A DNA stretch of 64,000 nt, taken from contig QPGO01000021.1 of assembly GCA_008632985.1 (NCBI GenBank), positions 1-64,000 of the forward strand, in the 5' to 3' direction. The position numbers were made by a program, and so were the translations under genes. The notes under the pieces were generated by a model that searched no databases, was not told the origin of the DNA, and saw only the letters and a program-made list of their open reading frames with translations. Each line of letters begins with the position of its first letter. Position 1 is the stretch's first letter. Positions 30,778-64,000 of the stretch are shown piece by piece. This DNA comes from Psammoneis japonica (Eukaryota).

Positions 30778-32416
30778 CAAGAAGGCAAAAGGAGAAAAAG
30801 CAGCCTCCACATTGAAAAAAAAGAAGCCTTCTCTTTGTGCTCAAATTGCCAGCTTTTTGGTGGCAACGTTGCTCAGCTCATGGCTGTGAACAAAAGAAGA
30901 GCAAGGCCCAATTTTTGGGGCACCTGAGAGCAAGGACATGAGAACTGGGTTGCTGGTGGGTCAAGATTTTCAACTTTTAGTTGTTGCCATGAGAGTCAGT
31001 TTTAACAATGATGAAGATCTGAAGGAAAGTGGCTTGCCTGTCAGGAGTTGTCCAACCACAATGGATGAAAACACCACAACATCACACCCTCAACTTCATC
31101 AGCTCTTTGAGAGAGTTGCAGAGACAACAAACAAACACATCACAAAGACAAAAAGCACAGCAAGATGGAGCATGTTGTCAAGGGCAGCAATGACGAAGCA
31201 CACAACATTGTTGTCTCTCTTGGCTGGTTGCACCAGACCATTGTTTGTGGGTTGCAAGTGCCGCTGCCAAGTTGACCAGAGATTTGCACAAAAAAGATGA
31301 CATGCTGGCCAGACATTTTGTGATGCTTGCATGGGTGCCACCCTCAAGCCTTGGTTTCTTGCAGGTGATGTGCACCCAACCAAAGCCCAAGAATGCTGTG
31401 AGCATTCTTCTCTTTAAGGTGGATGAGTGCAGCGCTGTTGGTTGCTGTGCCACTGAACACTTCATCTTGAGGTGCGTGCACAACAAAGGACATGTCAGAC
31501 AGACCATGATGGCCCATTTGTGATGAAAATGGAGTCTTGCCAATCTTTTTCTAAAACTGCATGCAGTCTCTCACGCAAAGCACATGCACACAAATGCTGT
31601 GACAGCCTGCCCCCAAGGACATTGCTGTCTTTTTGGTGATGATGGTGAGTGCAGCATGCACAAAGTTTCCAGCACAAAATAATTCAGGAAGTCAAATCAT
31701 CTTGCCATCCATCAGCTTGTGCGCAAAGACAACAATGCGTCCAATCATGATGGAGTGCCATGCTTTCTGTTTTGGTTTTGTTTTGGCTGAGACTGCCAAG
31801 AAGGCAAAAGGAGGAATGGCAGCCTCCACACTGGAAAAAAAAGAAGCACTCTTTGTGCTCAATCACTGGCACTTTGGTGGACAATGTCACTCAGCATGTG
31901 GCTGTGAACAACAGGAGAGCAAGGCCCATTTTTTGGGGTGCCTGAGCAAGGGCATGAGGAGCAGATTGGTGGTGGGTCAAGGTTTTCAACTTTCAGTTGT
32001 TGCCACAACAGTCAGTTTTGACAATGACACACGAAGATCTGAAGGAAAGTGGCTTGCCTGTCAGGATTTGTCTCCAACCACAATGGATGAAAACACCACA
32101 GCATCAAATCCTCAACTTTGTTTGCTCATTGAGATTTGCAGAGATGACAAACAAACATGCAACAAAGACAACAAGCACAAGATGGAGCATGTTGTCAATG
32201 ACAGCAGCAATGGCGGAGCATGCAACATTGCTGGCTCTCTTGGCCTGTTGTGCCAGACCATTTGTGGGCTGCAAGTGCCACACCAGAGAGGCACATGATG
32301 AAGATGACATGCTGATCAGACATTTTGTGACCCCAATGACTTGTGTGGACATGCCACCATCACGCCTTGGGCTTCTTGCAGGTGGCGTGCACCCCAGTGC
32401 AAGCAAAGCCCAAGAA
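30778..32416 (+). repeat. About 0.6-kb diverged direct duplication (30778-31393 and 31797-32416)
   Basis: Shared blocks gaaggcaaaagga, gaagatctgaaggaaagtggcttgcctgtcagga, caatggatgaaaacaccaca and caaagcccaagaa. Confidence 0.9.
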
Positions 32417-33427
32417 CACCATGGGATGTGCCGTGCATGTTTGGCTCTCAGGTGGTTTCCACATGAAAAGTGCACCAGGCGATCTCCGGAAATTGTTCAC
32501 ACATGCTGCTCCAGTGGAGACCAGGACATTAAAAAAAATGGGTGACAGCGCGCCGCGTGCGCAAAAAATTGAAAAAAGACAGTTGCGAGGAAGTGAGGAA
32601 GTGAGTTGACAACGTCATCAGAGACAACAAGATCAAAACAACTCCTGCATTGTGAGTGTAAAGAAGCAGCAACAAACACTGAACATTCACATTGCAGGCT
32701 TGTGCATGAAACCAGCCTGGAACCCAAAGGTGAGCCACACGTCACATCATGCTTGTTCCACGTCAGCGCTCGAGTTGACCTTGATGCCACACTTCACGCA
32801 TCCAGACAGCTTCAAGACACATGATGCATGTTCATTGCCAGACATTTCTGCTGCCACTGATGACAATTGGACCACTTTGAATGTTTTGAACTTCCCTTCA
32901 TTCCAAGAAAATGTGGGTGCACAAAGTGTTGCTGGGATGACTCCTGGAGAGACCCATCAACATTCCTCCTGCCAAGGCCAATCTCAGGAAATGAAGTCCT
33001 GCCATGCGGTGTGGCAATGTCTTTATGAGGAGTTGTTTCTGTGCTGGATTACAATGTTTGTGATAAAAGCACTGCACAAGTTGTTGATTTTCCATCTGAT
33101 CTGAGGCGGAGCAGCACGCAGGCATGCCCAAACCATCCTCTTGGTGACAGGACAAGGTGCTCCTTGACAAAACAGATCATGGCATCTACAACATGTTGTG
33201 TGTTTGTTGCTTGTTTGCACTCCATTGTCAAAATGCCGTCAGTTGGCCAGCATGGGTGTCATGGCTTTCTTTTGCATCCATTCGGGTTGGGGCCCTGTTG
33301 CGGCGCACCTTTGTCCTCTGATGCAGGTCATCACTTGGCATCAGCATGCCGGCAGAACACCAAGCACAAAGAATTGCTGGAAGATTTCCAGCAAGTTTGA
33401 GACCCACCACTTTCATCCTCGAAAATG

Positions 33428-33635
33428 CACTTGCCAACAAGGCAAAATCTGTTGAATCAACCATCTGGCAGCAACCAAGTCACACTCTCAAGTTCAAGTT
33501 GCTGAACACTCTCTCTAGCGAGGTCACCAAACACTTGCCGACAAGGCAAAATCTGTTGAATCAACCATCTGGCAGCAACCAAGTCATGCTCTCAAGTTCA
33601 AGTTGCTGAATGCTCTCTCTGGCGAGGTCACCGAA
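33428..33635 (+). repeat. Tandem repeat, 2 x 104 bp
   Basis: acaaggcaaaatctgttgaatcaaccatctggcagcaaccaagtca occurs twice at 104-bp spacing. Confidence 0.9.
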
Positions 33636-33849
33636 TGTGACTCAGTTTGCCGTGTGAAGACAGGGTGCCGCAGAGCTCAACATCATCAGACAGTTCGACA
33701 CCCTGCTTTTGCGCGAGTGGCCATTGGACTCCAAAAGTGCCAACACATGCTGCATGCCACTGGACTCCAAAAGTGCTGCCACACTCAGAGAGAGTGAATC
33801 ACTCTTCACAGCGACTGGGTCATTGATGCAGGCACACGTGGCTGCACCA

Positions 33850-34740
33850 AAAGTGGCACTGGCCAATGTTAAAAGCGCAAGTCCCACAATGATCTGGTGC
33901 CACAATTTTGTTTTGGAACCAACAGTCAACAATGGTGACCCCCCTCCACATCAAACATCAAACCTTGTGACCACCGCTCCATCAAAGGTGTTGGTGCTCT
34001 GCAGTTTTGAACATGTGATGGATGGAACGTGACCGCCACGGAGAGAGTGATTGGCGACAACAGTGCACAAAAAGAGGTGCAATCAAAAAGAGCCAACATC
34101 AATCACCAGGTGTCCAAACGGCAAAAACAGGTTTCTGCATTGGCCAAATCTGATGGAACACACCCGACGCAGTTGCAAGTTGGTCCAACCACAATCCATG
34201 CATGGCTTTTTAGAAGACCAAGCCACCTGCACCAAAAGGGCCCACCTCCCAGATGAGGGGCTGCAATGATCCAGAATCTAAGTTCAATGGCACAGACAGG
34301 AAGCATCCTGATGGGAAGTGTTCTCAAGACTTGATGCAACCACAGTCCCAGCAGTGTCGATGCATGCTTTTGCAAAAACCACGCTCGCTTCCGACTCTCA
34401 CAGTCAGAACCGACATTGGGGTCCTGCCAAGCAAACGCACCACGAGGAATCCTGAAATGAAGAGAAAGGTGTTGACTGCAAACCTTTGCGAAAATAGCAG
34501 TGTCCCACCAAACATGGAGTCTCTCCACCATGCACCATCGCTCTGTGTGCCGCAATGCCACAAAACAGTGTGCACAAGGCACAAGTCATCAAACGACATT
34601 CGATTCTTCTCGAGAAGGTGACACACAGGTGATCGGCAGCCTCATGCCCATGGCGAATGAAATGGGGGTCTGATGTGCCATACAGCGACAATGCAGGACA
34701 CCGGGATGAGACGGATGCAACAAACTGAGGGCCATCGCGA
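33850..34740 (-). pseudogene. Acyltransferase-3 (NRF-6/OafA-like) pseudogene
   Basis: Fragments in several frames: LLFSQRFAVNTFLFISGFLVV, HQVLR..LPVC..FWIIAAPHLGGGPFWCRW and ETCFC..TW match AT3 motifs (FAVDTF..ISGFL; R.LR..P.Y; GP.W; C...WYL). Confidence 0.7.
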
Positions 34741-42099: not shown

Positions 42100-44570
42100 T
42101 CACTTCTCCCAACAAAAGCCCTCTAAGACCACCAGTAAATCATCACCATGAATACCGTCACTGTCGCACGAATGCTCAGAATGAAACCGGAAGACGATCT
42201 GTGGGCGGACATGGAATTCGAAGTGCGAGACGTTGTCCACAAATTCAAACAGCTCTTGCCGCGAAGGAAGAAGACGCGGGTTGGCAACGATTTCGTGAAA
42301 ATCCTTCAGAAAAGAATCCTTCATGCATGTGGTAAACCATTCAGGAGCACTCTCCTCGTAGAGTGGAGGAGCCATTGCGGTCATTAAGAGAAGTGGACTC
42401 ACATCAATGCCGCAAAAGCCACGGTCAATCACAAGTTGTGCAGCATTGAATCCCACTTCGTCTGAGCCACAAACGCCAAGTCGCCACTTCCGTGACGGCC
42501 ACGGAGACCGTTTGTCTCTGTGCTGACCTGTGCATCATGCACGGTTGCAGCTTTTAGGTTGTCCGTACAAAGTAGAAGAACTCACATGCGTGCAGTCACA
42601 ACGTGCCCGAATTCTTCTACGCGTTGTCTTTCAGAAGTCATCGTTGTCGTCATCTTCCCTGGTCATCCTCCTCAGAGCCTTTGGTGTGAAAGAGCTCCAC
42701 ATGCACGGGCCACAGCATCACTGAGAGAAAGCGTGGGCGTGAGAGGACGATGCGAGCATTGAGACAACCGTCACCGATCATTGCCAGTCATGGGGCCAAC
42801 GAGTGGCAGTCACTGAGAGTGCTGTTGCCAAATGCGGTGGCAGCAGCTTCTTGATCTAGAGACAAGCAAATGGCTTTCCAGAGTGCTGGATTGGTTGTCC
42901 ACACCTTCGAAACAGATGAGGAGGATGACAAATCATTGCAGGCAGGAGAGACACCAGGAAAACACATGCCATGAGATGTGCTCAAATGTGTTCTTCCCCC
43001 AGCAAAAAGCCCCTCCAATGCTGCCAACAACTTGTCACCATTGACAGGTCCAAAGCACAAATGAGCACAAGCATTTCCAAAGAAAAAAGTGATTTGAGGA
43101 CCTGGAACTCCAACTCCGAGACATGGGCCACAAATTCCATCAGTTCTTGCCATGTAAAGAAAAGTGCTCAAACCCAATTTTTAAGTGCTGTTGCACCTTT
43201 GCCCAGCAACACCGGCACCGACAAACCCACACTTCCAGTGCAATCAACTGGGAGCATGACACAGAAGCTCATGAAATTAGCCGGTCGTGGCACCACTTTG
43301 CAGCAACGCCCTCCGGAGACAACTGGTTGTGAAATGAAACCACACAAGAATTGGGCCATTGCTTTCTTTTGGAATGAATGCAAAGTGTTCACACAACAAC
43401 AGCAAAGAACAATTGTGTTCAGAAGAAGATGCAAAAGCACCTCAAGATCTGGGAGAAGAACCTTGCTTGTCTGCACCAAAGAGGGACTGGATCACACACT
43501 TGCAGGCACGGGAACAAAAGCAAACAGTTTGCTGCATGGAGCAGCAATCTTGGCAAGCTGGCAAATGGAAGAAGGGATGTTCAGGACTTGCAAGTGTACA
43601 TTGGGGAGCCTTGATGATGTCACAATGCTGAGTCTTGCATGGAAATGCCAATCCGCCATGCATCAGATGGACGATGTCAGGTGATGCCAATGGTTCATCC
43701 AAGTGAACACTCACAAGAACCATGACATGCACAAAACTTTCACTGAATGAAGTGTGAAGAACTCAGTTGGCCAATGAGAGCAGAAGAAATCATTGGGAAC
43801 TGATGGCTGTGGATGGAAGTGGTGCACATGTTGACAAAGTGGTTGTTGGAGCACATTTCTGAAGCACACAGAATTTGTGCTGGATCCTGTGTAGAAAATG
43901 CTCTGAATTTGCAAAAAATTGCCAAAAAGATCAACAAGCATGTGTGAGCCACAAGGTTTTGATGCCGGTCATTTTCCACTCAAAAGCATTAAAAAGGGCA
44001 ACAGCATCAGCATGAGAGCATGTGCAGAAACACATGTGGGGGCTGCCAGTGGGGGCTGACATCAAGGAAGTCTTGTTGTGTGAGAAGTGGCAGACATCTG
44101 ACAAGACAGCCAACATCTCACAAAAAAGTCCTTCATGCATGTGGCAAACCACGGAGGAAGATTCTCCCCCATGATGACAAGGGGTTGTCAGAGTCATGAG
44201 GAGAAGAGGACTCACTGCAACTCTGGTGCAGCCAAGCTCAAGTGAAAGTCCAGTGGCATTGTGCCCCACTTTGCCACAGCCAATCACCAAGAAGTCTCTA
44301 CTTGCATCACAGCTGTGGCCACACATGTTGCATTCTGGGGCAATGCAAGCATCACACACGTTCACAAAATCCAGTGGATTGCCTTTTTGGCGGAATTGCA
44401 CTTGCATGCATGCATTGGCAAAGAATTCTTTTGTCACATGTCTCGCTGGTGTCAGATGTGCATTGCATCCAAACTGAAGGTCATCATCACTGTCACCATC
44501 ATTTTTGTCATCAAGTCCAAGGTCTGGAGGAACACTTGCCCAAACATTCAGGGCTTTGGGGGGTTTCATC
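42100..44570 (-). pseudogene. Three degraded paralogous fragments of an unknown protein family
   Basis: GFNAAQL..VSPLLLMT (about 42390-42456) matches GHNATGL..VSPLLLMT (about 44195-44270). PQIVF..GDDLLVVLEG (42100-42210) matches PQITF..GDKLLAALEG (42990-43100). DNA ccttcatgcatgtgg-y-aaacca is shared. Confidence 0.6.
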
Positions 44571-47500
44571 AAGAGAGAAGTGCCGCATCACTTGTCTGGG
44601 TTCATCCTCAGTGATGCCATTGATGTTGCAATGCACGCAGAGCTCAACACTAGCCACAAAATCACTGTGACAAAGTGCTGGCATGAGTGGATGGCAAGCC
44701 AACAGCATTTTAGGTTGTTGATCCTCAGTGCAAGAAATGGAGTTGATTTGGCAAGACAAATGAGGCACATGGCAGACAAATGTGGGAAAGACCAAAAAAA
44801 ATGTGTCCAGAGATTGGGCTGTCATGCATGACAGCCTCTTAGCCTTTGAACAGGTTCACAATGGACGGGCCCCAACATGGCTGGAAATGATGATGCTGAG
44901 GAGACACGATCATGGTGCCTCCACTGACAGCAGTCTCTTTGGCTTTGAACAGAGCCTCACATTTTCTGCTGCTGCTGCTGCTGCTGCTGCTGCCTGCTGC
45001 CACTCTACAATGGACTGACTGTTGCTCACTCATGCTTTCTGTTTCTTGTGCTTTTTTGAATTCAAGGACCCAGAAACTTGTGTCATGTGACATCACACAC
45101 AAACGCTTGTGCAAATCAAATCTTCAGCAAGCAAAAAAAAACTCAAGTGACAGTTCTCATCATTGTTGATGCTTTCTGCCATGTTGCCAACTTTTTACCA
45201 TCTCAAAACCCCAGAGCAAACTCCTCTTTTGCCATGACAGTCTACATCCCAAATCAACTCTTCATCATTCATTGCATCCCCCTGTTGTGCAACATGACTT
45301 CTCTCACATGGAAGGAGAGATGAATGGACTGCCTTTGACACCATGTTTTTCCTCAGAGTGTTCTGTGTCTTGCATCCCATTGTTGCCTCAAGGGATGTGT
45401 GCAAAGTTTGATTTGTGGATCACAAGATGATTGACAAGCTCGCTGGAAACATCAATGCACGTCTTTCAAAGACATTTGAAAGACAAAAACATTGAAGACA
45501 AATCAGCGGTGGTTGTGAATGATGCTGTTGCCACAGCATTGGCTTCTGTTGGCTGGTGGGTGTCAGAAGATTGAGACATCTTCCCAACAAGGCATTTGAG
45601 TCATCCTTGGAACTGGCAACAACTTGGATTGTGTGGAGGGAACACAGATGCACAACATCAAGACTGGTGGTTTCAAAAATCTCAAGTGCAATGAGATCAA
45701 CAAAAGTGGCATTGACATTGAAAGCCACAATGAAAGCAAAACTTTTACAAAAAGGCAGTCACTGAAGAGTGCCTTGGTCTGCTCACATTGAGGCAATTAA
45801 AAAAGAGCCCTGACTGAAAGAAACACAAAGAAATCCTTCAGAGAATGCAAGGAGGAGCAAGGTTGGACAAGATGTGGGAGCTTCTCAAGACCATGGATGC
45901 ACCTGAGTCCTTCAAAAAGATCTTTGAAAAGGTGATTGATTGTGCAGCTAAGCTGCACCAGTTGCATTGTTTGTTGCTGCAGCCATTGCAAGGACTGGCA
46001 AAGGATTGCAGAACAGAAACCAGCCAACCAGGTCTGTGTCAGCACAATCGGTCAGCGCAACAAGATGGTGCAGGAAAAAGTGGAGTCTTGTCTCAGAGAG
46101 GTTGTCAGTGAAGGCATTCATTGTCATTGCATTTGTGTTGAGAGTGCCTTTGCTGTTGGTGCAGCCATCACAGAATCTTGGCTTCCAATGAAGAGGAGCA
46201 GATGTTGGAGTGGATGGAACTCTCTTCTGGCACCAATGAACAGAGAAGCCAGACATTGTGCTGCATGGCTTGGACATTCTGTGCACATCCATCAATCCTG
46301 TGAAAAGTCTTCACCTGGTGTTTTTAAAGCATGCATGCTCCCACTGTGCAACACAACTGGCTGGCTCTAGCTGGAGAGAGAGAGAGAGACTGCAGCACTG
46401 CAGTTACGTGAGACAGACAGATGGTGTCAGCGCATTTGAAGCACTGTTGCCCATGTCACATTGCATCATCATCCTTCATCATTGCAATCTGTCCACTGTC
46501 CATTGCCATTCTAAATTTGCCAGTTTTGCCAGTTTTGCCAGTTTTTTGTTGACAAACCATGAAAAGCTCAACAGCTTGCAATGGTGTTGGCAAAATTGAT
46601 CCCAGCCCCTCCAAAAGGATGACATGCAACCAAAGCTTGCCTTTGCAAGCCAGCTGTCCCAGGGACAATGCAAACTGTTTTAAGATGTGGCATCCTCCCA
46701 ATCCTCTCCTGTCAATGCACACATTTCATTTGTGCCACACAAAGTGTGCAAAGCACCGAGGACAGCCAGCAACAAGAAGTGGCAATTCTTGAAAGCTCCC
46801 TTTTGCTTTTGAACAACAGAACATGGAATGGCCAGACTCAGCACATGGCATTGCTGTGTCATTGGCACCATGCAGCAGAGTGCTGGTTGCTTTTGAGAAA
46901 TGCCCATGTCCTCAATGTCATGCTGTGATCACTGCAGGATCAAGCAGAGCTCAAGTTGTCTTGTCCTGTGGTGTGGCTGTTCTCACCACAACTCAGGAAC
47001 AGCAGCAAGTGACTGTGATTTGTTTGATGGTGTTTTTCCATGACATTTTCACAGCTCTTGCAGGAGCATTTGTGCAGTGCTGAGCACAGTGCCATGAAGT
47101 GTTTGCTGCCATGTGATTGCAACATCTGTCTTGTCAAAGATTTACATTTTGCCACTTGGGATGTCTTTGCAAGTCATGCAAGTCACAACTCCTCTTCAAT
47201 CCAGCAGGAGTTGACCCACATGTGCTTGCAGAGGAGCTGAAGGCTCCAGTGGCTCAACTCAGCAGTGCTTGGATTCCATTCTCTGGGCAAAGCAATTTGA
47301 CACAGCAATCTGCAGCTTTGTTGTTTGTGCCATGCCAATGACCCTTGCATGCTCATGGATGAATCACTCTCAAGGATGCAGACTCAAGGTGCTGCAACAG
47401 CTGCACATGGGCAAACATGCACAAAAAGACATGTGCACATGGGGCATCATCAGATGGCTTTTGTGCTCCCTCTGTGATTGAAGCTTCAAAGAACTCATGA

Positions 47501-50500
47501 GAAGCAAGTTAAATGAGCACATTGCAGCTGAAAAGAAAATTGAAACAGCTGTCTTCCTCAGCTGTCTAAAGCTCTGTTGCCAACACACATGACTGGAGCA
47601 AATTTTGGCCATTGCCCATGTGTCTTGGCGGTCTGACCCAGACTTCACCCACCAACAAAGCAACAAAAAATGGTTTTTGTTTTCAAATCACAGCAGGTTT
47701 CTGGGCAGAGAGTCCCCAGCTCCAGCAACATGTTTGGAAAACAACTGCCTGGCTGCAACAAGGTTGAGCCACTGCAAACAAGTTTGCAGATTGTGCTGGC
47801 ACCCCAACAAAGACTGGACAGCCACACACTTGCACTGCACAAGGGGGGGGCGGGGGTGCTCACATTGATGTGCATGAATGGTTGCCATGCCCAGCCCCAG
47901 TGCCATTCAGTTGAATTTTTTAATCTACAAGGACTCTCTCTGCCCACAAGTTTCCTGGGGAGGACTCAAAATGAGGCAAATGAGGCATGTGCCCTTGTCA
48001 AAGCCACTCACAGCTTGAGCATCACCAAATTCATTGGGAGGGGTGGGGGCACAACACAAGTGACCATGTGCACAACAGCATCATTTCATCAGCTTTTGCT
48101 GCAGTCACAGGCAGCAACCAGCTCCTCTAGCGCTTCTTGGCGTGTGGGCTTTTGGGCACTTGGAATGGCTCTTGCACTTGTTCTCAGCATGTGCAGGCTT
48201 TCAGGCACTTGGGATGAGAGATGAAGCCCCACACCACAAAAAACAGGGCTGAGTCTTTGCTTGTGCACACTTCTCAGCACTTGCAACTTGGAAAAATGTG
48301 CACACCACTCACCAAGAACTTTGAAAGCAGCTTTAAGCAAAGCAGCCAAGGTGAGAGCACATGGCATTTCTCTTGTTTCTCATTGCAAAGAGAAGGAGCT
48401 CTCCATTTTTGTTTGATGTTGTGCTTCCCTCTTGTGGAAGCACACCAGCATGCTGTCATGCAGAGTGCAGCATTTGCTGGAGTGTGGTGGCTCTGGTCTC
48501 CTCCCTCATGCATCATTGTCTCTCCACCTGCATTGATGTGCTGCTGTTTACTTTTTGGCTGTGGGCTTCAGACTTGGCCACCTCAAGCAGTTTGATGCAG
48601 CAAAATGGCCCATCTGCCAACCATTGGAGTCACCAGCCATTTTAAAATTTGAGCGCAGGTGCGCAAGACCAGAGCAACAGCCACTTTGTTGCTCTCTCAC
48701 TCACTTGCTCTTCTGACTCTTCCAAAGAGCAACCAACAGCAGCAGCTGCAACAGACAAAATGATTTTAATGCGGTTGTCTCAGTGCAGTGCACTGCCCAC
48801 TGTTGTTTGTTGTTTGCAGGAAGAAAGCACAGAGTGCCAACCAACAGGGCATTCTTGGTGGTGGCTGCCATGCAAGCAGCTCAACAATCCTGTGATGGCT
48901 CTTTTGCCCCATGCGCCCAGCTGTGCCAGGCAAAAATCACCTGGTCATGCAGCAGGGGTCAATGTTTCAGCACTGCACACAGGTTGAGATCCAACGCTGG
49001 TTCCTGTCCCAATCCACTGCTCATCAAGAGGTCCCGTTCACTGCCTCAATGCTTCATGGGGCAGAAAAGGGCATGATGTTGTGGTGTTTGATCTCAACTG
49101 CCACAGCAACAACTTGTGCCATTAAATCTTGCAGTCACAAGTTGCCATGATGCAGCGGGACATGGCACAGGTGGCGTGCTCATCCTTGCTGATGCAACTG
49201 TGCAGCGCTGGCTGCCACCACCTTGCAGTTGACAGTGTGATGCAGGTCCCACAGCATGGTGCCTGTCACTTCCCAAATGTGTGCTGGTGGTGTGCATTGC
49301 TGCATGCTCTAACCCATGGGGCCCAACTGCCAACATGGAGCTGGAAGAACTTGCCAACAGAATCATGCAGTTGCACGGCACAGCCAAATGCTTTGACCAC
49401 ATCTGTGAGAGCACCAATCTCTTGCATGCCAACAACTCTGGTGCAATGTGCTGGCAACAAAAAGGGGCCACTGTCACCACAAAACCCACCTCCAAGTTGT
49501 TGCTGTGCTGTCAAGCTTTTCACCAACATTGCCACCAATGCATCGGCCTCCATGTCTGCTGGCCAGGATGCCTCAACTCTGCTGCTCAGTTTAGTTTCGC
49601 TGCAGGATTCCCAAAATTCTCTGGGATTGCCACCTTTCACCATGTTTGAATGATGCTTTGTCAAACATGTGCCCAATGCTTGAAGAAAAAAATCACACAT
49701 TGGGAGTTCCCCATGCTTCCCCTGCATGATGTGACACGTGCACCACAGATGTTGCAGCAGTCCAGAGCTGCAGCAGAGCCAATCAGCTGTCAGACACCAC
49801 ACACCACACAACACATCATCAAACACTGCTGCTTCAACAGTTTGGAGAGCCATTCACTGACAATGACAGCTGCTGCAAGGATTCTCTGCAGCACTGCAGC
49901 ATCTTTTCACTGCCATGTTCATGCCACCGGATTGTTTTCTGATGTCACACAGATTGGTGCTGCATGTTTCTCATTGCAACACAAATGGCAGCCATGCCTT
50001 TTGCTCAGTCAACACCCATCACATTGTCAACACACAAATCAACTCTTGCAGCAGCTGCCTCTTCAACAGCTGTGCCGTTCATTGCCACTTTCATGTGCAG
50101 CACATGATCTTTTTGTTGTCAAGTTGGTGACGCATCTTTCTTTTTTTAATGCCACAAATCTGGCGTTTTTTTTTGTTGAGATTTAAGATTGCATCTTTTT
50201 GTTCATGCACTCACCCATGTCTTGTGCATGACCCTCATCTTTGTCACTCACATTTCAGGGTTTCACTTTTCTCACAAAATTCATTTTGGCAAATGAGTGA
50301 TGAAGAGCAACAGGATGATGCTCGTGTGAGTGTTGCGGCTGTCATTGCAGATGCATGAGGAGCTCCCAGCAATCACAAGCATCTGGGATGGCAAAATTGC
50401 ACCCAAGAATGCAGCTGGCTGGATGTGTGGTTTGTGCAAGCAGTCATGCAGCAGAGCAGCTAAGTGGGTCAATCTGTTCTGGTGTGCAACAGTGCAGCAG

Positions 50501-51118
50501 CAACAGTGCGCAGCAAGCTCCAAATCTTGATTGTCGCATGACAGCAAGATGGAAATTTTCTAGATTGCATTCATCAACTCTGCTGGAGACAAGAGCACAC
50601 CCACCCAAACCACGTTCATCCAGAATTGCCGCAATCCACTCGTTTTTTATTCCCCTCTCCTGAGCCCTTTCAGTTTTTCCTTTTTGCAAAAAATTGCCCT
50701 CATTTCCTGGGCATTTCCCAAAAGGGTTGAGGCAACTCCCCCCCTGCCCTTGCCATTTTGGGGAATCCCCAAATGGGTGAAACCAAACTGAGCTCTTCTG
50801 CTGATGATGCACCCCGCCTCCAATCTTTGTTTGCACTTCCTGAGAGTTTTTGCAAGAGCGCTTTTGCCGTTGTCGCCTGAACAGAAATTCTCTCCTGGTG
50901 CCTCTGGACACCACTGCCTGAGCTGACCTCTTCCTTTGTGAGGACCTCAATGCTGCTCAGCATGCCGTGGCACATTGCATTGCGTCACTGACTCACAAGC
51001 CTCCACTGGCAACAAATGCCCGCTGGCTGCAGGAGAACGAATGAGAAGGGCGTTGCGCACACAGCAGTGCACGCATTCTCAATGTTGTGTTCGCAGCCGG
51101 CCCCCGTGCGTTGAATGA
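42780..51118. other. Long TpA/CpG-depleted degenerate repeat block
   Basis: About 8 kb with very few TA or CG and dense spurious Cys/His/Gln-rich ORFs. Confidence 0.75.
48578..49586 (+). mobile_element. Heavily decayed relic of the same tyrosine-recombinase retrotransposon family
   Basis: 48578-48780 resembles repeat A (aaatttga..gagcaa..cttcc-r-aagagcaac). 49140-49586 encodes CHDAAGHG.GGV, NP.GP..N.ELE and NSGAMCWQQKGAT..KP.S.LL, homologous to the RNase H at about 53010-53460. Confidence 0.8.
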
Positions 51119-51387
51119 CCCACCTTGTGCAGTGCAACAAGGCAAATGACCCACATTTGACCGTTGGGTCATGCAAACCGTTTGAGTTCAAATTTGAACG
51201 TGCTTGCGCGAACTTGGCGAGCAAACAACGGTTTTTTCTGCTCTTTTCTCGTTTGCTTCACTCATTCTTCCGAAGAGCAACAAAGAGCAAGAAGCCGCTA
51301 GACAGTTTTTAACGCTGTCGACGCGGCGCAGGATGCCTCCGCTGTGGCTCCCTGTTGTTCGCAGGAAGAACCTTTGGTGAGTCCATC

Positions 51388-53778
51388 ATGGACGTGCAAC
51401 AGCAGCAAAACGCAGGACAAGGGGCCCAGAATGCCCAAAATGCCAACGACCCTGCTCCACCGCAAAGAGGAGCTGCAGCAGCCGCCGCGGCAGCCCAAAA
51501 CGCTCCGCCACCTCCTCCTCCACAAGTCCTGGTGCCTCCGGTGGCACCGCAAGCAGCAGGAGCCGTCATGCCGCCACCGCCACCGGGTGCACAAGCCGCA
51601 CCGGTGGCGCCGCCGGTCATTGCGACGCACCGGGATTTTTACCTCACAGCCGCTAACGACCCACACCGGGGGGTGCACGACGAGTCGATGCTAGACTTCG
51701 CGGTTCCGGTTCAGGGACCTTCGAGATACAACCCCGGAGTGCTCCATGGGCGAGTTGCAGCGGCGTCAAGTCACGATCAGCCGATGGCCGTCATCGTGCA
51801 CTGCCGAGAGGACGGCGCAGCGGATGAAGGACAGATCCAAGTCCTGCACCGCGTCACCACTTATCCGACGACCGTGGTTGGACCTGCCGAACCTTGGGAC
51901 GGTGAGACGCACGCAATGGCGGGTGACCTAACCCGTGGACAGTTTGCCCTGGTCGAATTCGGGGGCGACTCATTCAACTTGGCACAGCAGGGGACTAGGG
52001 TGCCAACCCACGCCGCACTCCTGGAGCATGTCACCAACAATGCGGAAGGCCTGCATCCGCATCTGGCTGAGGATGCACCAAACTCGGAGGTCGTACGGAC
52101 ACGACATGCAATGCACGTGCCATTTGAGTTCGTGCCGCTCTTGTTGGCACACCCTTTGCATCCCAAACAAGCCCACCAGCGCGTGCACGGCGCCGCTGCG
52201 GCAGCTAACAAGGTGGCTGCCATCCGACCACTGCTCGACTTCTTGCGCGTCGCCTGCTGTGCCACTGCCAACAACCAAGTGGCATCTGTTGTGGCGCAAC
52301 CTTGGCCTGCAATGACACGTCCCCCCAACGAAGCCCTCATTCAATTTTTTGATGCCAAGGTGGAGCGGGACATCCCCGGGAGACTGGGTTGGGCACCACC
52401 CACCGCGCAGCACTTCCAGCCGGTTGCACAGGCCATTGAAGAGCTCACCACTGAACAACGACAACTCCGACTTGATGCTACCGCACGTCAACAAGCGGCT
52501 GCCCGGGGCAAGGTTCCCAATGAGTTCTGGGGACCTTTTGGTGTCACCAAGCTTGTGAATTGGTGCCACGCCCTCAACGAGACAGCACTGCCGCCTGTGT
52601 GGGCCGCCCTTGCCGCAGCGCCTAAGACAGGCCGCCTGGCAGTCGTCCAAAATGCAATTGACGAGCAACGCCAGGCAATGGCCGTTCATTTTGACGCACC
52701 AGTCACGGTTGGCCTTGTCACCAAGCTCGCACAGCTGGATTTTGCTGGTCACAATCAAGACGAGCCAACCCAAGGCATCACTCCATTCCAGTTTGGGATT
52801 GCTGCGCCAGACAGTGCCGAGCAGATCGCCTGTCGCAAGGCCATGTACATGCACATTCATGGCGGCGCTGCGGCCCCGTCCCTCCAAGACACGCAGATCC
52901 TGGAAGCACCAGACAAGGCGCTCGTGGCGACGACAATGCAAGAATCTACCCTAGACGCCCGACCCGTTCGCATTCAAGAATTGGTTCCACTCAAACCAAC
53001 ACTCACCGGCTGTCATGATGCTGCAGGTCACGGCGCAGGCGGCGTCCTCCTGCCAACCAGTGCCACAGCACCCAGAGCAGCCACTCTCCGTTTCGGCAAT
53101 TGCAGACGCTGTCAACAGAGAGATGCGGGTCCTGTAGTGTGGCGACTGCCCTTTCCCAAAAGTGTCAGCAGTCAACTCTCCACTTTCTCCAACCCGCGCG
53201 GTCCCATCACCAACACAGACCTGGAACTTGCCGGCAGTGTCATTCAGTCCTTCGGCGCCGCCGACTGTTTTGACATCCGTGAACGCACCAGTCTTTCACG
53301 CACCGACAATTCAGGCACCATGTGCTGGCAACGTAAAGGTGCCACCACTGCCGTCAAACCCGCCTCCCGGTTGCTTCGACACCAATCCTACCACCAACGC
53401 TACCATCGCTACTTGGGGTTGCATGACTGCCCACCTGGACACCTCAACACTGCCGCTGACGATGCCTCACAACTGCAGTCTTTGTCCAACCATGAATTTT
53501 TGCGTCACTTTAATTTGTGCCATCCGCAGAAACTCTCCTGGCGTCTCTGGATGCCTCCACCAGAACTGAGTTCATACGTGATCTCAATGCTGCTCAACAC
53601 GCAGTCCAGCATGGCGTTGCCTCTTCCAGAGCCTCCGCCGCCAACACCCATTGGGACAAATGGTGAGAGTTCTGCTCCTCTTTGGCCATCGACCCACTCC
53701 TCAAAGACATTGACGACCCTGTTGTCTTCCTCCAAGTCTTCTTGCACCGATGCCGCACAGGAGTCCTCGCGCCGCTGA
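51388..53778 (+). pseudogene. Gag-like region fused in frame to a DIRS-type RNase H domain (RT apparently deleted)
   Basis: Pro/Ala/Gln-rich gag-like N-terminus, then RNase H motifs HDAAGHGAGGV, ITNTDLELAG, RTDN and PGHLNTAADDAS. No RT YxDD-like motif between them. Confidence 0.75.
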
Positions 53779-54664
53779 AGATGCCATGCGTTCGGTTGGC
53801 CAAACGTTTGCTGCAATGGGGTCCCCGGATCCACGCCACACATCCCAAGGCACAATGGATTTCCGCCTCACCTGGCAAGTCCGTTTTTACAAGAAGCAGG
53901 ATCCACCCCCAGACCACGTAAAACCGGTCCCAATTGCAGTGCTGCAATGGATTATGACCGCCGCAGCCCTCAGCAATGCCCCGGGCACACAAGCCATTGC
54001 TGAAATGATTGTACTTGCCTTTTTCTTCCTGTTGCGGCCTGGCGAGTACACCGCAACACCATCAGACACCACCCCCTTTCGTCTCGCCGATGTCCGGCTT
54101 GTGTCTGGTGGTGCTCACCTTGATGCCATGCAAGTTCCACTTGCACACCTTGACACAGCAAACTTTGCCACTCTCACCTTTGCCACCCAGAAAAATGGAG
54201 TGTGAGGCAAAGTTCTAGGGCTTGGTCTTTCCGGTCACCCCCACCTGTGCCCGGTTCAAGCCCTCATCCGCCGTGTCCAACACTTGCGCACCCACGGTGC
54301 GCTCCCTGACACACCCCTTGGTGTTTGCTTTCAAAACAACACCTGGCGTCGTGTGTCCCCGGCTGACATCACCAGCATGCTGCGCAATGCTGTCACTGCT
54401 CTCGGTCCGGCTAATCTTGGCTTCACCACCCGAGATGTTGCCACTCGGTGTCTTCGTGCCGCCGGAGCAATGGCCCTCCTTTGTGCCCGCGTCGACACCG
54501 ATCTCATTCGGCTCTTGGGCCGCTGGCGATCCGACGAAATGTTGCGACACCTGCACTTGCAAGCAGAACCAGTCATGCGCAACTTCGCTCGCGACATGCT
54601 CGCCGGTGGCGACTTCGTCCTCCACCCCAATGCTGACGTCCCTCAAAATCCTCAAGACGCCTGA
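53580..54664 (+). pseudogene. Tyrosine recombinase of the retroelement, inactivated
   Basis: FFFLLRPGEY (Arg I), TQKNG, RCLRAAGA and GRWRSDEMLRHL with the expected catalytic Tyr as His (CAC 54548-54550). In-frame TGA at 54203 and a frameshift near 53775. Confidence 0.85.
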
Positions 54665-54691
54665 TCACCACAGCCCTCCAGCCTCAACCCA

Positions 54692-55230
54692 CCCACCCTC
54701 CCAAAAGTGCACGGCACTGTGGGTGGCGCTGGAAGGCCCTGCCATTCCAGCTTGGGATTTTGGGAATGAGGCTTGCGCATCCGCTAGCAAAGCCATTCCA
54801 GTCCATCATTAGAAGATCTCTAGATGGCACTAGAGAGCCGCAGGAGAAGGAACAAGACGGGCGGCGTGAGCCGCCCACCTTGTGCAGTGCGACGAGGCAA
54901 ATGACCCACATTTGACAGTTGGGTCATACAAACCGTTTGAATTCAAATTTGAACGTGCTTGCGCGAACTTGGCGAGCAAATGACGGTTTTTTCTGCTCTT
55001 TTCTCGTTTGCTTCACTCATTCTTCCGAAGAGCAACAAAGAGCAAGAAGCCGCCAGACAGTTTTTGATGCTCCCACCTCTCCCGCCCTCTGGCCCTGCCG
55101 TTCCAGCTTGGGTTTTTGGGAATGAGGCTTGCGCATCCGCTAGTAAAGCCATTCCAGTCCATCATTAGAAGATCTCTAGATAGCACTAGAGAGCCGCAGG
55201 AGAAGGAACAAGACGGGCGGCGTGAGCCGC
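54692..55230 (+). repeat. 3' B1-A2-B2 split direct repeat block
   Basis: The 140-bp B cores differ at 4 sites; A2 matches A1 over about 197 bp. Confidence 0.9.
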
Positions 55231-59176: not shown

Positions 59177-61834
59177 TTAAACTCCTACCGACACCGTCGC
59201 GCTCCCACTAAACGTGAACGAATCATACCAGGAGATCCACTTCTTGACATTGCCAGCGTCGAGTCTGTCTGTAGAGTCGTCGACTTTGTTTGGCCGCTCA
59301 GCCTCACAAACAAGCACGTCGTCACGTTGGTCCTCATATTCCACTTCCTCGCTGCGTTTCTCAAAACTAGTACATGGCTCAAATGGTTTCTTCAGTGAAG
59401 ATGACTCTTCTTTCTCATTGACTACATCGGATTTTTTGTCGTGATTCACATGGACATCCCAATGTCTCTCTTCGACTCGCGCATGTTCCTCGGGTACGTT
59501 GTACTGTCCATTGGCTTCTTTGCCTTGTCCTTCGATTTTTTGGGCTTCCGAGTCGAAACCACGACAAGAAGGATATACCGTTAGTAATCCATTGCTCTCC
59601 ATGGTTGAGGCTTCACCGCGTATAACGTGTCCCTTACCGTCGTCCGATTGGCTTTCTTTGCTGTCCACTTCTTTGTCATTGACGGCGATATTCGTGTGTT
59701 CTACCGAAGACGAAAACGATGACTCCCACTCGTTGAGGCTGATTTCTTGTTCTTCTGAATGTTGATACTGGGCTGTGATCTTTTCAGGTGCCTGTGAAGA
59801 AGGAGAAGGCGTGCACGGCTCCACCCATCTACATTCACCCTTAACATTTGCACGTTCATAGCTTTTAGCTTGACCCGAATTCTGTTTTCCTTCACTGCGC
59901 AATTGATGGCCTGGATGATCCACCTCATTTTCAAGATCACTGTTACCAACCTGAGTGGCCCTGCAAGAAGTTGTGGGAGATGTTACGTTCGCAGCATTTG
60001 TTTCCGTTGTATCTGAGTCAGCTATGCGTTGACAATAAGCCGCAACTGCGCTAAGTTGCTCTTGTAGTTTTGTTGAGTTTCTTGAGTCTTCGAATTCCGT
60101 AACCTTATCAACCAGTAAGGCGAGATCGTTCAGCTCAACGACTATTTGCAAGCACTGGCGCGCAACTTCGTTTCTCTGTGCTCGATACATTTCTCCCCTT
60201 TCTTGCATCTTTCGAGCAAGCATAGTTTTATCATGAAGAGCGTCCTGAAACAAATCAAGCGTGGAAGAATTTTTCAGTCCCTTTTGAGATGGTGCATCCC
60301 GATTCGTTGTAGAATTGTCTAGTTGAGCACCGATCAACTCTTTGCTCTTAATATCCGTAGAGTAAACCATGTTGCCAATGGAATGTCGACGCCTAAGCTT
60401 AGTATGACGACCTTTCGTCTGAAGGACAGCACTTCCGCGGTGATGAACGAGAACTTGCTTGGGTTTTCCGGCGGCTGCTTCTTTTTGCCCGTACATGTCC
60501 ATGAGCCTAGCACACTGTCGTTGAGAAGCTGCAAGCTTTAACTGCAGTTGCCTAATAAGTACTTTGTCATCAATGATCTCGTTCACCTGAGCATTGGTTT
60601 TGATTCGTTTTGCGCGTGAAGCGAACTGGAGGGTGGATCTAGACTCCTCGACAAAATCTTCGCACGGAGTTATGCAGCAAATTACTGCAAGCCGAGCCTT
60701 TCCCAAAAGAGAAGACTTAAGAATAAATGTAAGTTTCGAATCTCGAAAGCTTATGTGAGGTGGATTGGGCTTTCCAAGAGCGTCAATAACACGCGACAAC
60801 GTTGTCAAGCTGTAAAGAAAGGTGAACATCGGAATGAAGTTAGGCCGACAGTACAGACCCCGCTTCGTCAGACGTACAGAGTCTCACCTTCTATTAATGT
60901 TCCCACCCTCGCTTTTCCTTGTTCCAATAGCTCGCGTTAAGCGTGCGCTTTCTGACCCTGCTAGATCAACCAGATTTAAGGTCGACTGAATGGTCGGCAC
61001 ATCTCCTTCGTAGGTCTCGAGAGAATTTTGACGACTCTCAATCGTAATCCGAAAGACTGCATGGGATCGAGATGAGTACTCATTCATTTTGGTAGATCTG
61101 GTGGTACGCTTTGTTTGTCCGTCGGAGAGTACTCTTAGTACGGAGTCAACGTTGCGAACAATCTTTTCCGTGGCGCTGACGAGATCTACAGTCCCCTTCT
61201 TCGGGTTTTCTCTGACTTGAATGGGTCTGCTCCCCCCAAGTAAATCTAGCACCTCCTCATTATACACTTCAAAAAAAGAAGCAGATATAAGAAATGATCT
61301 TTCGGGATGGTCGTCAATGTGATCGAATATAGCTTGAGCTGCCATATGAACTATGCCAGAATTCTTGTTTTGGTCGCCCTGCATGGTGAAGGTTTTTCCA
61401 CTCGATGTCTGACCATAGGCAAATATTGTGCCGTGCATACCCCTCAAAGAATCCATTACTATGCTTTTTGCGACTTCATCATATACCTGCCTCGTAGTGG
61501 CATTCTCGTTGAAGATCTTGTCAAAGGTGAAAGCGTTGCGACCGACAACTCTTTTCTTCAAAGGCCGTCCGTCACTCGATGCTTGCTCAATTGAATTTGC
61601 CACTTCCGGAGAAACACGCCACGCCCTACCTTCGCTTATAGCTTTTGAAGCTCCTTGTGTATCTTCAACCACGCTGAGCGGTCTGCATCGTACCGCAACT
61701 GAATTTCAACATTATATTTTGCAGCGTCAAGTATGTAAGTAGACAGCGTCGTCATTTCAACAGGACTGCGTCAATTTCGTACCTTTGACGTTCCCAAGAT
61801 CTTCTTCAATATCATTATAGAGCTTCTGATTCAT
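59177..61834 (-). CDS. Kinesin motor protein, kinesin-7/CENP-E-like; 3 exons
   Basis: Exons 61834-61783, 61698-60888 and 60809-59177. Splicing restores NVKVAVRCRPL and INRSLTTLSRVI. Motifs GQTSSGKT, SSRSH, DLAGSE and FRDSKLT. Confidence 0.9.
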
Positions 61835-62720: not shown

Positions 62721-64000
62721 CTACGGACGAGCTTTCTTTGCCAACCGCGCAGAACGCCTGTAACCTACTGAAGGGGCGTCCTTTGTGGACGGAGCATTGG
62801 AGCGGTTCCTTTGACCTCTGGTTGACGCGGCAGGCTTTATTGACTCGCCATCACTTCCGCGTTTCGCTTTACCTGAAAACCCGGCCTTTCGTTTCTTGGG
62901 TGACAATTCCTCTTCAGATTCTAGCGCACTACTCCTGAGTTTTGACGTTCGTTTTGTATCCTTTGGCGTTGGCTGCTTCGTGCTGACCTCGTCCTCTTTG
63001 ATTCTCGATCGTTTTGTAGCCCTCTGTTTTTTCCTTGGCTCGTTTTCCTCCTCTGAATCTGATGCATGCTCCGCACGATGTCGCGCTATGCTCGGTGTTC
63101 GCCTCGAAGTCGTTGATCTAGTGGATGTCGCCTTACGCTTCTTCGGGGAAGATGATTCTTTTTCGTCGGATGTTTGTTTCTTTTGCCGATGTCTTGGGAG
63201 CGGTGGCCTCGATGATTTGTCTTTGTTGTTTCGGTCATCTTCGTCAACTTCTCCTTTGTTTGATTGCTTCGCTGCAGGAGCCAGACGCCTGTTCAATCTT
63301 CGTGTAGGAATGCCTGACTCCTCATCCCCATCAACATCTTCGACAGCATCCAGCTTCCCCATCTTACCTAGATTCTTCGCGGTGGAACCCTGGGAAGCTT
63401 GCGACATGCGCGCACGTATACGAGCTGAACTACGGGTTTTCACTGACGATCCTGGATACACCGGTTTAGCTTTGCGGCCACTGGACCCGGTAGCGGAGGG
63501 TTCATTATTTTCTCTTGACGATTCTTCTTCGACTCTAGACAGATTACGTTCATCTTCCTCTCGTGGAGTTGATGTTCTCCTCGTCCTTCTCGTCGAGCCA
63601 ACACTCGATGCCACAGATGGAGCAATGGACGACAAGGCGGGAGACGCCCCAGTCGTTGATGGAATTTCGATAGACTTAACCTGTGGTGAAAACTTGTGGC
63701 GCTCGTCGCCACGATCTAGAGATGGAGTGCCTCGAGAAGGCTCATCAATAGAAGCTCTGTTGTCGTGTGACCGAGTGTGCATGGCAGGTGAATCGAGTAC
63801 ATTAGAATCATCAATGGATCGCGTGTGAGCGCTACGATCTTCTGATTGAGTGCCTTGAGAAGGCTTATCAATAGCACCTTTGTTGTCGTGAGACCGAGTG
63901 CGCATGGCAGGTGAATCTAATACATGAGGGTCATCATGGGATCGTGTGTGAACGCCACGATCTTGAGATTGAGTGCCTCGAGCAGGCTCAACAACAGCAG
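62721..64000 (-). CDS. 3' part of a low-complexity basic/Ser-rich protein with 40-aa tandem repeats (5' end outside the window)
   Basis: The frame stays open to the window edge. Repeated unit ..HTRSxDDxxVLDSPAMxTRSHDN.., NLS-like SPKKRKA twice, and RRSARL near the C-terminus. Confidence 0.65.
   Translation of the reverse strand, partial: AVVEPARGTQSQDRGVHTRSHDDPHVLDSPAMRTRSHDNKGAIDKPSQGTQSEDRSAHTRSIDDSNVLDSPAMHTRSHDNRASIDEPSRGTPSLDRGDERHKFSPQVKSIEIPSTTGASPALSSIAPSVASSVGSTRRTRRTSTPREEDERNLSRVEEESSRENNEPSATGSSGRKAKPVYPGSSVKTRSSARIRARMSQASQGSTAKNLGKMGKLDAVEDVDGDEESGIPTRRLNRRLAPAAKQSNKGEVDEDDRNNKDKSSRPPLPRHRQKKQTSDEKESSSPKKRKATSTRSTTSRRTPSIARHRAEHASDSEEENEPRKKQRATKRSRIKEDEVSTKQPTPKDTKRTSKLRSSALESEEELSPKKRKAGFSGKAKRGSDGESIKPAASTRGQRNRSNAPSTKDAPSVGYRRSARLAKKARP

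Follow-up and report, generated by a model that had tools for sequence, protein, structure and literature searches.

In mutation-accumulation lines of the chlorarachniophyte Bigelowiella natans, 210 of 211 mutations in one integrated viral region and 20 of 20 in a second were A>G/T>C changes, each of these at a TpA, with a rate of ~6e-7 mutations per site per generation, orders of magnitude above background (bioRxiv 10.64898/2026.01.13.699255, Mettrop et al. 2026). The authors propose adenine deamination of DNA and report that TpA-depleted coding sequences of B. natans are enriched in reverse transcriptase (RT) and DDE domains; the accessible text of the preprint mentions neither CpG nor diatoms (bioRxiv 10.64898/2026.01.13.699255). 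Here we describe a stretch of 64,000 nucleotides from contig QPGO01000021.1 of Psammoneis japonica, called the window when the whole stretch is meant, with emphasis on a tyrosine recombinase (YR) retroelement at 51119-55230 and on a region with an FG-GAP repeat gene at 1-2900, both TA-poor with near-normal CpG. On balance we favour the explanation that two separate context-specific transition processes act in place on inserted or repeated DNA and that TpA loss is the faster of the two. As far as the accessible part of the preprint goes, the pattern in the window matches the B. natans process and, at a far more advanced stage, would add a diatom-like genome to its range. The likeness is in the changes, apparently also TpA>TpG and TpA>CpA in the window, in the clustered TpA depletion with CpA and TpG enrichment, and in foreign or mobile DNA as the target, while the differences are that B. 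natans is a chlorarachniophyte in which the rate was measured directly and that in the window it comes from comparisons. The depth also differs, because the observed/expected ratio (o/e) of TpA falls to 0.05 in the window compared to a rho of 0.45 given for the nucleocytoplasmic large DNA virus region of B. natans, and the window adds CpG decay. In the literature searched, which left most subscription journals outside its coverage, no report of TpA-specific erosion or hypermutation in a diatom was found.

Three other systems have to be compared. Ascomycete repeat-induced point mutation (RIP) changes C to T mainly at CpA, which raises TpA and lowers CpA and TpG. The window resembles RIP in that context-specific transitions fall on repeats, kill mobile elements, leave a dinucleotide signature and have sharp edges, but the direction is opposite, since TpA o/e is 0.04-0.22 and the o/e of TpG and CpA (TG/CA) is 1.4-1.95. 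RIP was therefore rejected as the cause, because TpA falls and TG/CA rises. In animals, retroelements are edited by ADAR or APOBEC. The deaminase ADAR prefers a 5' U, which would read as TA>TG, and for both enzymes the target is RNA or cDNA, with only one strand being marked. The B. natans preprint takes up RIP and these enzymes as well. The window would share with them that mobile elements are damaged by a deaminase, but it has both TA>TG and TA>CA on the sense strand and has changes in resident non-mobile DNA. Finally, methylated mobile elements lose CpG by deamination of 5-methylcytosine (5mC). This agrees with CpG o/e down to 0.12-0.15 in the old blocks of the window and with the R>stop, R>H, E>K and A>T hits in the young YR copy, but 5mC deamination cannot make an A:T>G:C change and leaves the TpA loss unaccounted for. 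CpG methylation of diatom elements is on record (e.g. PMC9998398, as far as its accessible text goes).

Three composition classes are present in the window, namely, host DNA, five blocks without both CG and TA, and two TA-poor regions with near-normal CpG, which are the YR element and region 1-2900:

Host stretches (n = 6): CpG o/e 0.89-1.12, TpA o/e 0.44-0.68, TG/CA 1.02-1.24
51119-55230: YR element, 276 CG (o/e 0.82), 41 TA (o/e 0.22), TG 1.46, CA 1.40, GC 0.579
1-2900: FG-GAP region, CpG o/e 0.90, TpA o/e 0.16
8000-10250: block, CpG 0.34, TpA 0.06; its sub-part 9001-9750 is intermediate, CpG 0.63-0.71, TpA 0.09-0.16
14282-15100: block next to an N gap, CpG 0.26, TpA 0.04
22390-26940: block, CpG 0.14, TpA 0.05, TG/CA 1.88/1.95
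29600-34700: block with a gradient, CpG 0.15 and TpA 0.05 in 29600-32250, CpG 0.41 and TpA 0.08 in 32251-34700
42780-50500: part of block 42780-51118, CpG 0.12, TpA 0.07, TG/CA 1.89/1.91
Last 600 nt of block 42780-51118: intermediate and high-copy, CpG 0.50, TpA 0.06

Over the five blocks CpG o/e is 0.12-0.41, TpA 0.04-0.08 and TG/CA 1.67-1.97. When TpA and CpG o/e were computed in 253 overlapping 500-nt windows, TpA was below 0.25 in 107, and among these CpG was 0.6 or higher in 29 and below 0.4 in 71. The reverse state, CpG below 0.4 with TpA of at least 0.35, occurred in none of the 253, and therefore the order of loss was one-way. Consistent with this order, the intermediate blocks have CpG at 0.34-0.50 while TpA is already at its floor of 0.06-0.08. 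All but four of the 107 TA-poor windows (20751, 29251, 36251 and 42251) lie in or at the edge of seven contiguous domains, and both losses share domains and edges. In these domains TG/CA is 1.4-1.95 versus 1.02-1.24 in host DNA, so that TpA depletion with TG/CA enrichment in clustered windows, the type of signature seen in B. natans, is present throughout, and the old blocks also have that of CpG decay (0.12-0.41) with TG/CA gain. A first-pass annotation of this DNA had claimed that the YR element and the FG-GAP region are CpG-rich yet TA-poor, that blocks 22390-26940 and 42780-51118 have lost both, and that both processes end in TG/CA, and these claims are borne out by the ratios given above and by the scan.

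In the explanation that we favour, the first process would change TpA to TpG or CpA, turning A:T into G:C within the self-complementary TA step, and the second would change CpG to TpG or CpA. TpA loss would be ~3-6 times faster per site and would be able to proceed where CpG is not decaying; thus, a recent insertion would already be TA-poor with near-normal CpG, and old debris would be without both and enriched in TG/CA about twofold. We infer that the first process may be enzymatic adenine deamination of silenced or foreign DNA, as proposed for B. natans, and that the second would be deamination of 5mC. Since an A:T>G:C change cannot be produced by cytosine deamination, TpA loss stands as a separate process; it is seen where CpG is 0.82 and 0.90, and the earlier statement that it is not a by-product of CpG decay holds.

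The YR element has the following parts, all on the + strand:

51119-55230: YR retroelement, RT-less and defective, with split direct repeats in the order A1 ... B1-A2-B2
51119-51316: repeat A1, non-coding, TpA o/e 0.14 (A2 0.07), CpG o/e 1.04 (A2 1.03)
51355-53778: open reading frame (ORF) of 807 codons, in which a gag-like part at the N terminus is joined to the RNase H/C-terminal part of pol, with the RT region missing
53750-54662: YR gene, dead, with an in-frame TGA at 54203-54205 where relatives have Arg and the catalytic Tyr changed to His (CAC, 54548-54550)
54735-54874: repeat B1, TpA o/e 0.62 and 0.88 for B1 and B2
54874-55071: repeat A2, partner of A1
55091-55230: repeat B2, partner of B1

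Ngaro and PAT retrotransposons, which are YR elements of the DIRS order, have repeats in the arrangement A1...B1-A2-B2, the two internal ones lying downstream of YR (PMC4157794, in its accessible part). The window copy is like them in repeat layout, gag-like ORF, pol with RNase H, YR gene and lack of a target-site duplication (PMC4157794), and differs in that it is without RT. In two full-length relatives on metagenome contigs, L009 and L063, a gag-like ORF is accompanied by pol (797 and 849 codons) and by a YR ORF that overlaps. Residues 535-802 of the 807-codon ORF are 43% identical to the pol C-terminus of L009, and the gag-like ORF1 of L063 has a weak tblastn match to 52228-52884 (E = 8e-7). 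The pol of both relatives has sub-threshold RVT_1 matches only (E = 2e-4 and 5e-4), and neither Pfam nor the comparison with L009 pol revealed an RT in the window copy. Thus, the window copy is best read, from these comparisons, as a putative internally deleted, RT-less derivative. No methyltransferase-like domain was detected, as Pfam gave no family but the weak RVT_1 in the pol of the relatives and a diverged domain could be missed; this fits Ngaro better than PAT and favours a probable Ngaro type over PAT/DIRS. Pfam found no family in the three ORFs of the window copy. The YR gene has 3570 relatives (representative clusters) at E <= 1e-3 and belongs with the tyrosine recombinases; the alignment has RPGEY, a QKNGV-R-GE motif, a SLRxGGA motif and GRW..Y, and the catalytic column is Tyr in 38 of 40 aligned relatives. 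Its C-terminal half matched no chain among the PDB sequences at E <= 10. The family is very large, with more than 533 confirmed metagenome stretches besides the 3570 clusters, and apart from the sub-threshold RVT_1 its proteins are without a Pfam family. Some predicted relatives (P0178-P0327) have His or Cys at Tyr columns, with 7 His and 1 Cys at column 100 and 1 His and 1 Cys at the catalytic column.

The insertion is recent. A contig of sequencing run X1 with a depth of 55 joins 51118 to 55230 and represents the empty site with no target duplication (overlap 1 nt), and therefore one allele or strain, at least, does not have the insertion. This contig places the ends of the element, as first annotated, right to within 1 nt. 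Divergence from X1 is 0.36-0.42% in the flanks, and that between the terminal repeats is 4.1% overall (A1/A2 are 95% identical over 198 nt and B1/B2 97% over 140 nt), in line with the few percent noted at first pass. The element is multi-copy, with a summed contig depth of 436-1573 in run X1 versus ~60 for the flanks, and its right edge is sharp, with TpA o/e 0.95 in the first 200 nt outside and 0.20 in the interior. At this element TA depletion is thus confined to the inserted DNA (0.20 inside versus 0.44-0.68 in host DNA), and the exception in the window is the FG-GAP region. The insertion is polymorphic or strain-specific although its YR gene is dead. No RNA dataset was among those listed with the element sequence.

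If TA poverty were intrinsic to this family, intact relatives would be expected to have it, and they do not. Eighty metagenome loci (L001-L080) with related YR genes were compared, of which 77 are stop-free and 79 have the GRW..Y motif including the catalytic Tyr. Their YR genes have TpA o/e 0.59 +/- 0.10 (range 0.40-0.86), CpG 0.97 and 2.1% Tyr, whereas that of the window has TpA 0.18, 4.1 standard deviations below the relatives, CpG 0.83 and 0.66% Tyr. Likewise, the RNase H region has TpA 0.59 (0.32-0.76) in 57 stop-free relatives and 0.18 in the window. The first-pass annotation had named equal TA poverty of intact copies as what would contradict it, and this was not seen. In L009 the B-type repeats are 100% identical, the ORFs are open and the YR gene has TpA 0.52; therefore a fresh copy of such an element is not TA-poor and its repeats start identical. 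Of 1176 windows across the 80 loci, 7 were TA-poor and not one TG/CA-rich, and the TA-erosion trait may be restricted to a lineage. The YR gene at 905-1780 of L017 has the lowest values of the 80 (CpG 0.51, TpA 0.40, TG/CA 1.46) and may be a partly eroded copy from another genome with both processes.

The relatives also suggest a direction of change, as set by outgroups that are 51-70% identical and with CpG changes mixed in. At 20 codon-aligned positions with TA in at least 30% of the relatives, the window has TA at 4, CA at 5, TG at 3, TT at 3 and something else at 5, whereas relatives keep TA at 52-62% of such positions (p = 0.0008). Both TA>TG (3) and TA>CA (5) are thus seen on the sense strand. 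Of 103 CG positions, 44 are still CG in the window and 32 read TG or CA, and relatives keep 51-54%. In 11 of 100 conserved YR columns the window has a different residue: the catalytic Tyr267 is His (TAC>CAC), Thr145 became Ala by TpA>TpG, Arg56>His, Glu154>Lys and Ala232>Thr arose by CpG>CpA, and six other columns differ too. In addition to these, Arg152 became a TGA stop by CpG>TpG. Judged from these codons, both processes appear to have hit the window copy, with TA loss proportionally much further advanced. CpG had first been called intact in the least decayed repeats, which agrees with an o/e of 0.82 but not with the at least four conserved YR codons that carry CpG-type changes, one of them a stop.

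The terminal repeats (338 nt) differ by 13 events, 4 CG-class, 5 TA-class, 1 TG<>CA double, 1 other transition and 2 transversions, distributed as follows:

A1/A2, 9 events: 3 CG-class, 3 TA-class, 1 TG<>CA double, 1 other transition, 1 transversion
B1/B2, 4 events: 1 CG-class, 2 TA-class, 1 transversion

Transitions inside pyrimidine-purine steps account for 10 of the 13 events and 11 of the 14 changed letters (29% expected, p = 2e-4). Of the union sites, 5 of 9 for TA and 5 of 21 for CG are different between the repeats, which in a loss-only model corresponds to ~38% of TA and 13.5% of CG lost per repeat, a ratio of ~3.4 (Fisher p = 0.12). When composition and retention are set against those of the relatives, the TpA/CpG loss ratio is ~5-6, and between an old block and run X1 5 of 32 TA sites and 3 of 53 CG sites differ (ratio ~2.8, from differences that carry no direction). 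The three rough estimates agree in direction, although none is significant by itself, and TpA loss is probably faster, ~3-6 times CpG loss per site. The repeat estimate puts TpA o/e at ~0.36 when the terminal repeats were identical, and therefore roughly half of the log-depletion would predate this insertion.

This last figure leads to the alternative that survives best, although it is an unlikely one, that the element was born TA-poor. TpA changes would be made on the RNA or cDNA intermediate or along a non-autonomous lineage, CpG would decay only after insertion, and the two tiers would reflect where the changes are made and not a faster rate on the chromosome. A TpA of ~0.36 at insertion is below the 0.59 of the relatives, and a copy without RT and with a dead YR gene must move in trans and can carry old damage. 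Moreover, when run X1 was compared with the window (40 of 304 differing places listed; contigs of other copies fit both repeats; runs X2 and X3 had near-zero coverage), the 17 best-supported differences from other genomic copies among those 40 places were CpG-class in 6-7 cases and TpA-class in none, and therefore part of the TA poverty may be inherited at insertion. The 5 TA-class differences between the terminal repeats argue in the other direction, as such repeats are expected to be identical at insertion (PMC4157794, in its accessible part), as are the B repeats of L009. So do the TA>TG and TA>CA changes on one strand, the FG-GAP region, which is not a retroelement, the TG<>CA doubles that arose in place in block-internal duplicates and in a single-copy old block, described below, and the B. 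natans process, which according to the accessible text acts on integrated DNA (bioRxiv 10.64898/2026.01.13.699255). The early description of TpA erosion as fast is thus only partly supported, by the ratio of ~3-6, and is weakened by the p values of the individual tests and by the absence of TpA-class changes among those 17 differences.

TG<>CA doubles make up 4 of 9, 2 of 5 and 13 of 68 substitution events between block-internal duplicates, those in 29600-34700 differing largely in this way, and none of the 29 differences in a host tandem repeat at 63707-63999. Such doubles are expected if an ancestral CG or TA went to different products in the two copies. In a single-copy old block, in 42780-51118, the window differs from X1 contigs (up to 315 kb, ~60x depth) by 22 letters in 6.1 kb (0.36%), and in a host part by 6 in 1415 (0.42%). 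The 20 of these 22 letters that were listed correspond to 15 events, of which 3 are CG-class, 5 TA-class, 4 TG<>CA doubles (46530-46531, 46686-46687, 46952-46953 and 49374-49375) and 3 others. Reading the five single TA-class differences as losses was dropped, because TG/CA makes up about half of the block and any transition there makes TA or CG. At 0.36% divergence, single hits that are independent of one another should give fewer doubles than this; two-letter differences of the TG<>CA kind also occur at 51226-51227 and 52427-52428, between the A repeats and between element copies. The four low-divergence doubles would call for extreme mutability of some sites or for events that change both letters together; an enzyme could take a C and the A next to it on the same strand at once. 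They bring up a second alternative, which we consider improbable, that one coupled mechanism, a single enzyme or repair pathway such as a deaminase of both C and A, acts on CG and TA in silenced chromatin. The shared domains and edges of the two losses would be accounted for, as would 4 doubles in 15 events, which are hard to obtain from independent single hits. However, the two losses have no fixed ratio, with TpA 0.16 and CpG 0.90 in the FG-GAP region and 0.22 and 0.82 in the element, and the B. natans hypermutation is at TpA only, CpG having no occurrence in the accessible text (bioRxiv 10.64898/2026.01.13.699255).

The FG-GAP region bears on a third alternative, intrinsic composition or selection through codon usage, amino-acid content or avoidance of UpA in RNA, which is very improbable. 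It contains one gene:

498-2483, - strand: FG-GAP_2 repeat gene, intact, 661 codons, seven repeats, in the TA-poor, CpG-normal domain 1-2900

This gene has 98 relatives at E <= 1e-5, all with PF14312 on record. Its Tyr content is 0.45% versus 3.4% in 29 homologues, and its intactness together with Tyr-to-Phe replacement resembles selection-filtered avoidance; host genes are also moderately TA-poor (0.44-0.68). Yet TA is depleted at all three codon positions, with 3, 4 and 7 observed and 28.9, 36.0 and 36.4 expected (o/e 0.10-0.28), and TpA o/e is 0.14 in the coding sequence, 0.18 in the 3' flank (1-497) and 0.20 in the 5' flank (2484-2900) with TG/CA 1.40-1.66. Loss at all codon positions and in both flanks argues for a regional mutation bias. 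The non-coding A repeats are TA-depleted as well, intact relatives of the YR gene are not TA-poor, the catalytic Tyr was lost, and old non-coding blocks are at TpA 0.05 with TG/CA doubled, none of which is expected from selection on codons or composition. We take the FG-GAP gene to be a functional gene that was long exposed to the TpA process, with selection acting as a filter. No stop codon can arise by TA erosion, and therefore its open frame is weak evidence of function. Our first guess, that His or Cys would stand at ancestral Tyr positions, was ruled out because the six conserved Tyr columns read F at 4, L at 1 and Y at 1. The first-pass annotation counted this region among the least decayed repeats, which fits the multi-copy YR element; the region itself is an intact gene whose repeat status found no support. 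The weakest alternative, a sequencing or assembly artefact in which modified bases are miscalled (5mC as T, modified A as G) and give false TG/CA, is scarcely credible, because, although the affected steps could carry symmetric base modifications, X1 contigs match the 6.1 kb of old block to 0.36% at ~60x depth, the blocks have indels and no recognisable coding signal, and miscalls would be needed at ~95% of sites.

Besides the 17 copy differences discussed above, several points weigh against two in-place processes with faster TpA loss. Taken one by one, the rate contrasts are weak (Fisher p = 0.08 and 0.12), and the five single TA-class differences in the old block, which have no direction, could be ordinary transitions of the abundant TG/CA. 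The YR relatives are 51-70% identical and come from other organisms and are not active copies of this family in this genome. In the FG-GAP region the conserved Tyr columns read F, L and Y, not His or Cys, and the contexts of the surviving TA look host-like. Only 49107-49586 of the old blocks is recognisably derived from an element. Run X1 may be the source sample of the window itself and is then not independent proof against an artefact.

A bolder proposal, possible although we would not bet on it, is that diatoms and chlorarachniophytes share a DNA-level, TpA-specific adenine-deaminating defence that would mark insertions while they are polymorphic, ahead and independent of cytosine methylation, and that may reach host genes, with Tyr-to-Phe in the FG-GAP gene as an adaptation. 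To date, TpA-directed hypermutation of foreign DNA has been measured in a single alga, by a single preprint; if the same, deeper signature in a diatom-like genome is true, the process would span distant lineages of the stramenopiles, alveolates and Rhizaria (SAR). The window, with a young insertion, intermediate blocks and old debris, is a natural time series that separates TpA loss from CpG decay and makes the targeting rules testable, namely, sequence context, chromatin and which host genes are hit.

As to sequence context, the surviving TAs in the old blocks are in TTAA in 26% and in CTAA/TTAG in 27% of cases, versus 4% and 8% in host DNA, and ATAN contexts, at 46% in host DNA, drop to 11% there. 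In the young YR element 11 of the 41 TAs are in CTAG. The B repeats retain TpA (o/e 0.62-0.88), mostly in CTAG or TTAG (GCTAGC, TCTAGA, ACTAGA), whereas the non-coding A repeats are at 0.07-0.14. Thus, the element is TA-poor overall (0.22), as had been noted at first, but not uniformly so. The retention in the B repeats may reflect a protected context or a functional site, e.g., for recombination.

One recognisable element remnant is in the old blocks:

49107-49586, + strand: RNase H remnant of the same superfamily as the YR element, inside block 42780-51118

Between the old and the young RNase H pieces there are 15 CG-class differences, and the old blocks in general may be ancient mobile elements. 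Just left of the YR element, 50614-51014 has a summed contig depth of ~2150 (2152) in run X1 versus ~60 for its neighbours. Pfam gave no match above curated cut-offs for the 107 stop-free frames (at least 90 codons, both strands) of the five old blocks, and the open frames of block 22390-26940 gave no credible family; weak matches to DUF6236 and Acyl_transf_3 in old-block frames look like chance and were rejected. The stops TAA and TAG disappear together with TA, and no new stop can come from a change of TA to TG or CA, and therefore dead DNA keeps long open frames. These 107 frames without a credible family may mislead gene prediction, and the erosion may mislead divergence dating.

The genes of the window are short-intron eukaryotic genes and code for a kinesin, a Niemann-Pick-C1-like protein and a glycosyltransferase. 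The Niemann-Pick-C1-like protein has its named relatives, 32-43% identical, in pennate diatoms, including raphid ones (Seminavis, Cylindrotheca, Amphora); the best match without a name is 53% identical. The kinesin motor domain at 59177-61672 (- strand) is divided over two ORFs (Pfam positions 25-257 and 258-327) that are ~54 nt apart, the separation being a short intron at ~60830-60883. A self-BLAST of the window gave 13 pairs, i.e., few internal repeats. The scaffold gap of 198 N at 14084-14281 adjoins the eroded block 14282-15100 and obscures its left edge. The tandem repeat at 63707-63999 that served as the host control has a unit of ~123 nt and 83% identity and lies inside an ORF at 62721-63998 (- strand).

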